The notes under the pieces are model-generated. The model was not told the DNA's origin and ran no database searches. It saw only the letters and a program-made list of their open reading frames with translations. From Candidatus Niyogibacteria bacterium (GTDB lineage Bacteria; Patescibacteriota; Minisyncoccia; HO2-45-28), in the NCBI GenBank assembly GCA_016181935.1, contig JACOYI010000003.1, positions 35,741 through 99,740 of the forward strand: a stretch of DNA of 64,000 nt, in the 5' to 3' direction. Positions within the stretch are counted from its first letter, which is position 1; each line of letters starts with the position of its first letter. Positions 21,905 through 59,942 of this stretch are shown here, one piece after another. The position numbers were made by a program, and so were the translations under genes.

Positions 21905-21914
21905 CTTTGCCGTG

Positions 21915-21986
21915 TGGGTGTGCTAGGATTCGAACCTAGAACCACGAAGGTATAAGCTTCGCGCTCTACCATTGAGCTACACACCC
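21915..21986 (-). tRNA. tRNA-Ile(UAU), hand-folded with anticodon UAU
   Basis: Acceptor GGGTGTG/CACACCC, D-arm GCTC-AATGGTA-GAGC, anticodon stem CGAAG/CTTCG with loop CTTATAC, T-loop TTCGAAT, discriminator A. Confidence 0.7.
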
Positions 21987-56537: not shown

Positions 56538-57746
56538 ATGCTTTTCTACTACAAAGCCAAAACGCGCGAAGGGGAGGATAAATCCGGCTCGATCGAGGCG
56601 GCTACACAGGATTTAGCCGTTGCCGCGCTTCAACGACGGGAATTGATCATCGTGTCGCTCGAGGCGGCCGAAGAGCGCGGTTCGTGGCTTTGGCGCAATT
56701 TAGCCGCATTCGAGCGCGTCAAGGATCGCGACATTGTCATTCTTTCGCGCCAAATGGCAACGCTCTTTGGCGCAAAGGTGGCCGTGGTGGACGCGCTCCG
56801 GATCTTGGTGACCGAAACCACCAACGAACAGATACGCAAGGGGCTTACGGCGGTCGCGGATGATATTCAGGGCGGACTTCCCATTTCGCAGGCCATGGCC
56901 CGACAGCCCAAGATTTTCACCCCGTTTTATACGCAAATGGTGCGTTCGGGCGAGGAATCCGGAAAACTGGAGGACGTACTAAATTATCTGGCCGACTATT
57001 TGGAGCGTTCCTACGATCTTATCTCCAAAGCGCGCAATGCCCTGATCTATCCGTCCTTTGTGGTCGTGACGTTCGCGGTCGTGATCAGCATTATGCTGGT
57101 GGTGGTCGTTCCCCGCCTGTCCTCGATCCTTATTGAATCCGGCCAAGCCGTTCCTTTGTATACCCGCATCATCATCGGGTTATCCGATTTTTTGCGCGTA
57201 TTCGGTATTTTCATTATTTTGGGACTCGTGATCGCGGGCATTGTGGTGTGGCGGTATCGCGAAACTGCGCGGGGCCGTCGGGCGACCGCGCGGTTCCAGC
57301 TGAGCATCCCGATCGTGCGCGACCTGTATCGTCAGCTGTATCTCGCGCGGTTTGCCGATAATTTGCAAACGCTCTTATCGGGCGGCGTGCCGGTGGCGCG
57401 CTCGCTCGAAGTGGCGTCCGATGTGGTGGGGAATGAAGTTTATGCGTCCATTCTTCGCGAAACGCGCGATGCGGTCAGCGCCGGCTCCTCGATCTCCGAT
57501 GCGCTTGCGCGCTACGAGGATGTTCCGCCGCTCGTGTCCCAGATGATCAAGATCGGCGAGGAAACCGGAAAACTAGTGCCGATCCTGGAAACGCTTGCCA
57601 AGTTTTATAACCGCGAAGTCAACAACACGCTTGAGCGCATCGTCAGCTTGATCGAGCCAGCCCTGATCGTGGGCCTTGGCCTCGGTGTCGGCATCATCGT
57701 TGCCGCTATTTTGGTTCCGATCTACAACCTGTCTATTGGGATTTAA
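56538..57746 (+). CDS. pilC: type IV pilus inner-membrane platform protein PilC/GspF
   Basis: Two GspF repeats and three TM segments. Confidence 0.85.
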   Translation: MLFYYKAKTREGEDKSGSIEAATQDLAVAALQRRELIIVSLEAAEERGSWLWRNLAAFERVKDRDIVILSRQMATLFGAKVAVVDALRILVTETTNEQIRKGLTAVADDIQGGLPISQAMARQPKIFTPFYTQMVRSGEESGKLEDVLNYLADYLERSYDLISKARNALIYPSFVVVTFAVVISIMLVVVVPRLSSILIESGQAVPLYTRIIIGLSDFLRVFGIFIILGLVIAGIVVWRYRETARGRRATARFQLSIPIVRDLYRQLYLARFADNLQTLLSGGVPVARSLEVASDVVGNEVYASILRETRDAVSAGSSISDALARYEDVPPLVSQMIKIGEETGKLVPILETLAKFYNREVNNTLERIVSLIEPALIVGLGLGVGIIVAAILVPIYNLSIGI

Positions 57747-57750
57747 GAGT

Positions 57751-57829
57751 AGCCCCAAGGGTAGTCCTTTTCTGATTCCTAAGGACTACCCTTGGGGCTA
57801 TTTTCTGATTCCTAAGGACTACCCTTAAG
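57751..57829. repeat. REP-like palindromic element, copy 4, plus a tandem partial fifth copy
   Basis: AGCCCCAAGGGTAGTCC-TTTTCTGATTCCTA-AGGACTACCCTTGGGGCT followed by a loop-plus-right-arm repeat. Confidence 0.8.
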
Positions 57830-57925
57830 TTATCCACAACGGCAATTATTTTACCGTCCCAAGTCGTCTATAATGGATGTATCAATGTTTTGGGATTATT
57901 TTAACAATTAACTAAACAGCTTTTT

Positions 57926-58441
57926 ATGCTACAAGCTACAAGCTACAAGCTACAAGCTCGCAAGGGGCTGCAAGCCCGCAAAGGTTTTACGTTGATCGAG
58001 CTTTTGGTGGTGATCGCCATTATCGGTGTATTGGCGTCGGTCGTATTGGCATCGCTCAATACCGCGCGCACCAAGTCGCGCGACGCACGCCGCATCGCGG
58101 ATATTAAACAGCTTCAATTGGCGCTCGAGCTTTCTTTTGATTCGGTCGCTACTTATCCGGCTACTTTAGCGGAGCTTGCTCCAACGTATATTCCGGTGGT
58201 TCCGCTCGATCCCCTTCTCGCTTCCTATAATTACGAGCGGTGTTCGGCTACGGTGTATCATATCGGCGCTGCGCTTGAAGAACCCACGAATCCTGCGCTT
58301 GACTCGGATTCTCGAGGCAACGACACAGACGTAAATATAACGCTTCCTAACGGTTGTACTACATGGGGTACTGACAGTGCTGTTTGTTACACTCCAACAA
58401 CGGGAGGTCAGGGATCTCATTGCTACGACGTTTTGCCGTAA
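57926..58441 (+). CDS. pilA: type IV major pilin (PilA-like) with an unusually long 20-aa leader that contains a heptanucleotide repeat
   Basis: KG-FTLIELLVVIAIIGVLA prepilin cleavage and N-methylation motif. C-terminal Cys pair. Confidence 0.8.
   Translation: MLQATSYKLQARKGLQARKGFTLIELLVVIAIIGVLASVVLASLNTARTKSRDARRIADIKQLQLALELSFDSVATYPATLAELAPTYIPVVPLDPLLASYNYERCSATVYHIGAALEEPTNPALDSDSRGNDTDVNITLPNGCTTWGTDSAVCYTPTTGGQGSHCYDVLP
57929..57956 (+). repeat. (CTACAAG)x4 tandem heptanucleotide repeat inside the pilin leader coding sequence
   Basis: Four perfect units start 1 nt after the ATG and are followed by a degenerate unit CTCGCAAG. Confidence 0.9.
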
Positions 58442-59246: not shown

Positions 59247-59942
59247 ATGAATCGAGGGTTTATCCAGCACTACAACGTCGAAATTTTCCGGCGCCTAAAG
59301 CGTATTCGACATTGTAGTGCTGGGTTTACGCTCCTCGAAATGGCGGTGACGGTTGGCGTTGCCGCGATGATCTCGAGTTTGATCCTTGCGAATTTTCCGC
59401 AATTTTCAAGGCGGCTTGAAATGTCGAGAACGGCGCAGGCCGTGGCGCTTTCGTTCCGCGAGGCGGAAGCCGCCGCGCTCGGTGTGCGAGAGTTCACGTT
59501 CAGCGGAGTCGGTTTTTTCCCCGCCTATGGTTTGCATTTTGAAAAACCATCGGCAATAAATGGCGATGGCCGGCAATTTTTTCTTTTCGCGGACCTTGAC
59601 GAGGATCGGCTTTATGATGGAACGAAGGATGATAATTTTGACGGCGAGCCCGATGAGCGCGCGGATATTTTTACGATCAGCGGCGCGCCAAAGATCGTCG
59701 ATCTCTGTTCCGGCAGAAAATCCCGCAGCAGTTCCGCCGGTTGCAGGCTTGACAGCTTGGATATCACGTTCGTCCGTCCCAATCCGGATGTGAAGATCAA
59801 ACGGAACAACGATCCGTTATCCGATTTTTCCGATGCGGAGATCGTCGTCCGGATTCCGACCGGAGAATGCCGCCGCATTACCATTTGGTCGACGGGACAA
59901 TTATCCATTGAGCCGATCGAAATACCATGCCAATTGGAATAA
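59247..59942 (+). CDS. minor pilin/pseudopilin with long leader (…RHCSAG-FTLLEM)
   Basis: Prepilin N-terminal motif. The leader coding region carries a 20-bp inverted repeat at 59265 to 59325. Confidence 0.65.
   Translation: MNRGFIQHYNVEIFRRLKRIRHCSAGFTLLEMAVTVGVAAMISSLILANFPQFSRRLEMSRTAQAVALSFREAEAAALGVREFTFSGVGFFPAYGLHFEKPSAINGDGRQFFLFADLDEDRLYDGTKDDNFDGEPDERADIFTISGAPKIVDLCSGRKSRSSSAGCRLDSLDITFVRPNPDVKIKRNNDPLSDFSDAEIVVRIPTGECRRITIWSTGQLSIEPIEIPCQLE

Follow-up and report, generated by a model that had tools for sequence, protein, structure and literature searches.

The window, by which we mean the whole 64-kb stretch of DNA that was analysed, comes from a Patescibacteria (CPR) genome and carries a type IV pilus cluster in the order PilB (53177), PilT (55286), PilC (56538), pilin, PilD (58457), further pilin-like genes and then LigA. 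Based on its position between pilC and pilD, the pilin is probably the major pilin. Homologues were found among the pilins of Patescibacteria (Niyogibacteria, Sungbacteria, Parcubacteria), and the best of them shares 74% identity with it. The features of the locus are as follows.

56538-57746, + strand: PilC, T2SSF platform protein, directly upstream of the pilin
57750-57826, + strand: palindromic terminator-like element (CCCCAAGGGTAGTCCTT ... AAGGACTACCCTTGGGG, then a T-run), after pilC
57869-57874, + strand: TATAAT, a -10-like hexamer (TATAATGG), 52 nt upstream of ATG 57926
57926-57928, + strand: ATG start codon of the prepilin, the only in-frame ATG, GTG or TTG between TAA 57902 and the cleavage site
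57926-58441, + strand: type IV pilin gene, 171-aa prepilin and 151-aa mature protein, with Patescibacteria pilin homologues
57928-57958, + strand: perfect period-7 tract, 31 nt, encoding prepilin leader residues 2-11 (LQATSYKLQA)
57947-57982, + strand: 18-nt tandem duplication, copies at 57947-57964 and 57965-57982, encoding LQARKG twice; read from the sequence
57983-57988, + strand: prepilin peptidase cleavage site between Gly20 (GGT) and Phe21 (TTT), followed by TLIELLVVIAIIG; PF07963
58457-59242, + strand: PilD prepilin peptidase (A24_N_bact and Peptidase_A24), the putative remover of the tract-encoded leader

The open reading frame 57926-58441 encodes MLQATSYKLQARKGLQARKG, followed at the cleavage site by FTLIELLVV..., that is, MLQATSYKLQARKGLQARKG joined to FTLIELLVVIAIIG. 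Residues 17-41 match PF07963 (E=7.7e-9), with ...ARKG before the cleavage site and FTLIELLVVIAIIGVLASVVLA after it, and the features of a class III signal peptide are all present: Gly at -1, Phe at +1, Glu at +5, a hydrophobic N-terminal helix and a positively charged leader. Two side observations concern the surrounding DNA. Within the palindromic element after pilC, a 26-nt segment comes twice, 33 nt apart, and alternative hairpins result; the element recurs at other gene ends in the window (6723, 22833/22860 and 48791/48818; seven arm matches against 0 expected) and in the related contig L193 (2053-2081); it looks like a REP-like or terminator repeat family. Elsewhere in the window, at 21914-21986 on the minus strand, lies a predicted tRNA-Ile with anticodon TAT, an uncommon way of reading AUA.

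The heptanucleotide tract, whose unit length is not divisible by 3, begins 2 nt past the A of the start codon at 57926 and lies within the translated 5' end of the gene. From 57926 to 57985 the layout is ATG, (CTACAAG)x4, CTCGCAAGGGG CTGCAAGCCCGCAAAGGT and then TTTACGTTGATCGAG. The first-pass annotation had reported four perfect copies of CTACAAG directly after the pilin ATG, and this is correct, the copies lying at 57929-57956; the "degenerate unit" noted behind them is also present, its actual sequence being CTCGCAAG, of 8 nt. For 57928-57958, Tandem Repeats Finder gives period 7, 4.4 copies, 100% matches and a score of 62, the top of 29 rows for the window. In our scan this is the sole perfect tandem repeat in 64 kb with a unit of at least 6 nt and at least three copies. 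In 300 Markov-1 simulated 64-kb sequences, the maximum perfect period-7 tract was 19 nt, compared with the 31 nt observed. The tract is thus non-random and far above chance expectation.

The leader also contains the 18-nt duplication, which the first-pass annotation does not mention. Its first copy overlaps the last heptamer unit, and the two LQARKG copies differ at four positions, every one a synonymous third position. The resulting 20-aa leader had been described as unusually long. It is indeed long compared with the modal leader of 7 aa among 115 homologues, but it is not unique, as eight of them have leaders of at least 20 aa as called, some probably from miscalled starts. Additionally, the pilin-like gene at 59247-59942, after pilD, has a 26-aa leader as called (MNRGFIQHYNVEIFRRLKRIRHCSAG before FTLLEM) and no Pfam match, so that long leaders are not confined to the tract-bearing gene.

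Whether the tract lies in the coding sequence depends on the start codon. Upstream in the pilin frame there is a TAA at 57902 and no further start. Between the tract and the Gly-Phe site the pilin frame contains no ATG, GTG or TTG, only a single CTG at 57965, in agreement with the earlier statement that no alternative ATG lies in this interval. If translation began at this CTG, the leader would be six residues long (M-QARKG), the tract would lie in the 5' UTR and a change in unit number would shift no frame. A leader ending in QARKG would fit the 5-8-aa modal leaders of the homologues, and ATG 57926 has no preceding Shine-Dalgarno motif. However, CTG 57965 likewise lacks such a motif at a usable distance, and most genes in the window have none, which makes its absence before ATG 57926 uninformative. 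CTG is a very rare start codon in bacteria, and this rarity also speaks against the downstream start. Moreover, since the two LQARKG copies differ only synonymously, the upstream copy would appear to be translated and the frame of ATG 57926 to be read through. In at least eight other pilin genes the tract follows immediately after the sole ATG, an arrangement seen for example in L134, L125 and L136, and in a +7-nt allele described below (L190) the pilin frame has no start at all. In L144, L147 and L193 the pilC-pilin spacer has the TATAATGG -10-like motif conserved at the corresponding position; at the window locus, TATAAT 57869 was missed by a consensus promoter scan because no good -35 is present. 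The LQARKG duplication, the similar pilins and the conserved TATAATGG together support ATG 57926 as the predicted start, and we consider initiation at the CTG very improbable.

Given this start, the number of units would decide whether pilin is made. When the gene was rebuilt in silico, full-length prepilin was obtained with 1, 4 or 7 units, while the other counts gave products of 55 aa (two units), 62 aa (five units), 20 aa (three units) and 27 aa (six units). The earlier claim that gain or loss of one unit would shift the frame and abolish the prepilin is borne out by the products with three and five units, with no start codon available for rescue.

No sibling strain or sequence of the window locus was found by exact-protein look-up, homology search or a locus-matching metagenome pattern, and the exact pilin protein is absent from the collection searched. 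In the nearest relative, L193, pilC is 78% identical in DNA. In related species, syntenic PilC-pilin-PilD loci have leaders of 5-10 aa and no tract (MNIFRKKTGG in L144-L146, MRKKG in L147 and MGKTSGG in L193), which indicates that the tract is a lineage-specific addition to a dispensable segment. The suggestion that repeats were recruited into the leader is therefore reasonable in the light of these short, tract-free orthologous leaders. Two homologues, P0030 and P0035, were considered as candidate OFF alleles, having been called from a TTG inside FTLIEL, and were rejected: their DNA has intact in-frame ATG leaders, and the calls are gene-caller errors. Public calls start the pilins of L144-L147 (P0030, P0035) and of L189 and L191 (P0128) at an internal TTG or ATG despite an intact ATG leader, and such miscalled starts drop the N-methyl motif match.

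Heptamer tracts were found in the leaders of many other CPR pilins. When metagenomes were scanned for (CTACAAG)x2 no more than 30 nt before FTL(I/V)E codons, 23 loci were recovered, corresponding to about 20 distinct genes. In all 23 the tract lies between an in-frame ATG and the Gly-Phe site (for example, MLQATSYKLQASRG before the Phe in L134 and MKLQATSYKLQANSG before the Phe in L125), and in these loci, as in L003 and L024, the CTACAAG tracts of the pilin leaders have 2.3-4.9 units and are without exception in frame. The tract-bearing pilins belong to very different classes, being 30-50% identical to the window pilin over the N-terminal helix only. Eight further pilin genes in the same loci, which were not the basis of locus choice, carry other units, among them CTACAAC, CTACAAA, CTACACA, TTCCACA and AGTACTC, again all in frame. 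Of 55 non-redundant pilin N-termini from all loci examined, 31 are preceded by a tandem tract that lies no more than 90 nt ahead of the Phe codon, and in 30 of the 31 its period is 7. Many genes share a common layout of ATG, about five units, about 7 nt and then TTY. Counting only tracts that played no part in the choice of a locus, there are 10 in 3.2 kb of leaders, 7 in 9.5 kb outside open reading frames and 8 in 119 kb inside them, so leaders are enriched about fourfold over the non-ORF DNA of the same loci. In several clusters (L132, L135, L141 and L003), each of several pilin genes has a leader tract. We also observed that one Nomurabacteria pilin (L024, 5540-5628) has a 34-aa leader with (CTTACAG)x3.7 and (CTACAAG)x3.6, both in frame, and that tandem pilin paralogues (L003 at 781 and 1423; L138; L135) have near-identical 5' regions and leaders, including the tract, with strongly diverged mature parts.

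An assembly or sequencing artefact is scarcely credible as the source of the repeats. The tract keeps a 171-aa open reading frame intact, and tract types identical to it are found in isolate genomes and in assemblies made independently, by different laboratories and with different assemblers.

The same survey bears on the proposal of the first-pass annotation that the tract is a contingency switch. Under this explanation selection would maintain the tract because the stochastic gain or loss of 7-nt units would switch the major pilin, and with it piliation, with the benefit that a host-attached CPR cell would evade pilus-specific phages or change its attachment. The lack of a rescue start, the enrichment of leaders over other non-coding DNA and the presence of tracts in several pilin genes of one cluster are all consistent with it. 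Nevertheless, all 32 of the 32 distinct CPR pilin-like genes with leader heptamer tracts (2.3-4.9 units) are in frame and thus ON, for which p is about 5e-16 if the phase were free, with a 1/3 chance of being in frame. There are just four units at the window locus, and 4.9 is the maximum seen in CPR.

Comparisons between close strains show both stability and change. Tract lengths are identical despite SNPs in L122/L123 (99.65%), L127/L133 (99.36%) and L135/L142 (99.57%, two tracts), and L129, L189 and L191 have identical tracts. In contrast, L190 compared with L189, L191 and L129 is 99.56-99.65% identical over 3,444 nt, and the sole indel is a +7-nt insertion (GCTACAC) in the leader tract. From the ATG, L190 reads MLPTTNYNLKSYTLQATS followed by a stop, and the pilin frame has no start. 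Judged from its sequence, L190 is a natural OFF allele of a CPR pilin analogous to that of the window, and slippage at such tracts thus does occur and makes frameshift alleles at analogous loci. This allele argues for the contingency proposal; that it is the only OFF allele among the strain-level comparisons argues against it. The tally of 32 in-frame genes and one OFF allele (L190) differs from a pattern in which ON and OFF alleles are both common at analogous CPR pilin leader tracts. One tract indel was found in about seven tract comparisons at 0.3-0.6% divergence, from which the tract indel rate is roughly tens of times the per-site substitution rate, a crude strain-pair estimate that purifying selection against OFF alleles would lower. 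Such a rate is far below that of classical contingency loci.

Tract type can also change between relatives. L132 and L135 have flanks that are about 96% identical, and in their orthologous pilin (TTCCACA)x4.4 stands against a CCTACAG-type array, with a 3-nt difference in length. The pair P0124 and P0123 (MNQNG versus MKLQATSYKLQANSG, with an identical mature protein) was examined as a possible tract loss and rejected, as the difference reflects a recombination breakpoint at the junction of leader and mature protein. L188 and L125 share 99.9% identity that sets in at GFTLIE, and the DNA before it is unrelated. The same arrangement, with identical mature parts, unrelated leaders and upstream DNA and a breakpoint at the GFTLIE codons, was observed for L192 (P0134) versus L129 as it was for L188 versus L125. 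These breakpoints suggest a modular exchange of 5' modules between pilin genes.

Heptamer repeats are by no means restricted to pilins. An exact scan for (CTACAAG)x3 in species-representative genomes gave at least 120 loci, compared with about 0.3 expected in random sequence. Among the matches listed, about 33 CPR loci have 3-4 units in sense orientation inside long open frames; in antisense, a CTACAAG tract has TAG in every frame. The CPR host genes among these matches encode GT4 and GT2 glycosyltransferases, PMT_2, Lgt, FemAB, SMC, class I and II tRNA synthetases, DnaG, LigA (x2), UvrC (x2), Pth and MiaA, and three are pilin-like genes, in L003 and L024. The frequency of glycosyltransferases among the other tract-bearing genes would fit a contingency role. 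The tract is in frame not only in glycosyltransferases, however, but also in DnaG, LigA (x2), tRNA synthetases, SMC, Pth and UvrC, and its presence in essential genes means that switching cannot be its purpose there. Up to four similar tracts occur within one open reading frame, which likewise weighs against a dedicated switch. The region 5875-7772 of L089 has a GT4 glycosyltransferase with two tracts and a 390-aa membrane ORF with four, of units that all differ, each 31-33 nt long and all in frame.

When perfect repeats of three or more copies were counted over 300 kb of CPR loci together with the window, 54 had period 7, a few had periods 4-5 and none had period 6 or 8-11. No CPR coding tract was seen above 4.9 units or 34 nt, and lengths cluster at 25-27 and 30-34 nt, which may reflect net additions of 21 nt. 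A dedicated mechanism for CTACAAG as a special unit was rejected: viral contigs contain 17 CTACAAG loci versus 16, 5 and 2 for three same-composition controls, and since one control unit is equally frequent there, the CTACAAG count reflects a general abundance of heptamer repeats. According to Mrazek et al. (2007), in the account given in PMC4679880, heptanucleotide SSRs are the most abundant 5-11-nt class in most SSR-rich prokaryote genomes. Period 7 dominates among the repeats of this size here too, as it does among the long prokaryote heptanucleotide SSRs (PMC4679880, PMC4692102); those in the literature are mostly intergenic, whereas the CPR tracts lie inside genes, in frame, with no more than 4.9 units. 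In Pseudomonas, Alcanivorax and Bacteroides the CTACAAG unit builds long arrays between genes. The arrays at these loci (L010, L022, L027, L037, L043, L088 and others) consist of AGCTNNN-type heptamers in up to 18 units, are often inverted around a short spacer and, in Alcanivorax, are then followed by a conserved ctacgcttg...gttcccgg, which marks them as a repeat-element family.

It could also be proposed that the tract acts at the level of the nucleic acid or the leader peptide and that frameshifting is a side effect. It might, for example, provide a C/A-rich, weakly structured start that aids initiation where Shine-Dalgarno sites are few, or it might bind a regulator or tune the length and charge of the leader. 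The recurring layout of ATG, about five heptamer units of differing sequence and about 7 nt before the Phe codon would fit such a role, as would the scarcity of Shine-Dalgarno motifs in the window and the recurrence of CTACAAN-like units in unrelated pilin classes. Also in its favour, a regulatory role has been proposed for intergenic heptamer repeats beside the start codons of Beggiatoaceae genes (PMC4679880). On the other hand, the predicted accessibility of the start region is nearly constant over 0-7 units (mean unpaired probability 0.44-0.55), and RNA accessibility was ruled out as the purpose of the tract. That the repeats are perfect and show no synonymous variation speaks against selection on the peptide. 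The nearest orthologues do without a tract, unrelated units (TTCCACA, AGTACTC) are found in the same position, and no Rfam family reaches its gathering score, so that no known RNA family is matched. We therefore regard a function of this kind as improbable.

Taken together, we favour, with some reserve, the explanation that a slippage-prone tract is tolerated in a cleaved leader, where it switches incidentally at a low rate and is kept in frame by selection, rather than being a tuned contingency switch. In this reading the tract is a genuine heptanucleotide microsatellite in the translated and later removed leader of a CPR type IV prepilin. PilD is expected to cut after Gly20, leaving the mature pilin unaltered by in-frame changes of the tract, and the leader would thus be a tolerant site for such repeats. 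Replication slippage would occasionally add or remove 7-nt units; a change of one or two units would abolish the pilin and a compensating change would restore it. The great majority of natural alleles keep the frame, and close strains show a stable tract, which makes a largely incidental tract kept in frame by selection the likeliest reading. Several observations pull in the other direction: the roughly fourfold enrichment in leaders and the recurrence of CTACAAN-type units in pilins of very different classes hint at more than passive tolerance, the single OFF allele demonstrates that switching happens in nature, and assembled consensus sequences hide minority OFF subpopulations. As for the contingency switch, the mechanism behind it is sound, with a translated leader, a 7-nt unit, no rescue start and the L190 OFF allele, while a switch maintained by selection is unsupported by the 32 in-frame genes and the stable strain pairs; we consider it unlikely, though far from negligible.

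Among known systems, the closest is the neuO O-acetyltransferase gene of E. coli K1 (CUS-3 prophage), with (AAGACTC)n; its arrays have 3-53 units, commonly 20, and 65.6% of alleles or genomes are OFF (PMC13001214). In both, a 7-nt unit lies at the extreme 5' end of the coding sequence, full-length product arises in one of three unit-number classes modulo 3, and the unit composition is equal (A3 C2 G1 T1); slipped-strand mispairing is the mechanism of neuO and is proposed here. The architecture of the window locus, with its 5' coding heptanucleotide repeat, matches that of neuO as it does leader repeats such as opa, in favour of a contingency locus. In contrast to the long and highly polymorphic neuO array, there are four units here, close to the bottom of the neuO range, and OFF alleles are very rare at analogous CPR loci. 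NeuO retains the peptide that its repeat encodes, whereas here that peptide would be cleaved off with the leader. The Neisseria opa genes have (CTCTT)n in the region coding for the signal peptide, in many more copies and with high measured switching rates. They resemble the pilin in that a frame-shifting repeat lies in the cleaved leader of a surface protein, so that in-frame changes spare the mature protein, and differ in combining a pentamer with a Sec signal peptide rather than a heptamer with a class III (prepilin) leader. The heptanucleotide repeats of H. influenzae hmw1A and hmw2A, also SSRs that control a surface adhesin, differ from the present tract in that they lie in the promoter region in 13-38 copies and grade transcription without a shift of reading frame (PMC2651432, PMC8262952).

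No paper on the repeat sequence or its encoded peptide was found, and the literature searched contained no report of phase variation or SSR switching of CPR pili. The window locus alone is an unproven instance of an already known kind of SSR phase variation, and the concentration of heptamer tracts in CPR pilin leaders is a more interesting lead than the single locus. It is tempting to extend this to a lineage-wide CPR system in which leader heptamer microsatellites, typically about five units between the ATG and the Gly-Phe site, switch individual pilins and, with the help of recombination at the GFTLIE junction, allow a fast remodelling of the 5' module, with the major pilin of the window as one member; we put this forward tentatively and hold it to be rather doubtful.

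Even without switching, two points are of use for annotation: heptamer tracts are concentrated in pilin leaders, where their turnover is fast, and gene callers mis-start such pilin genes (P0030, P0035, P0128). CPR bacteria are uncultivated and host-attached, and roles in attachment and DNA uptake are ascribed to their type IV pili. If leader tracts do switch pilins, they would give CPR populations a simple way to vary piliation, for example under pressure from phages or hosts.
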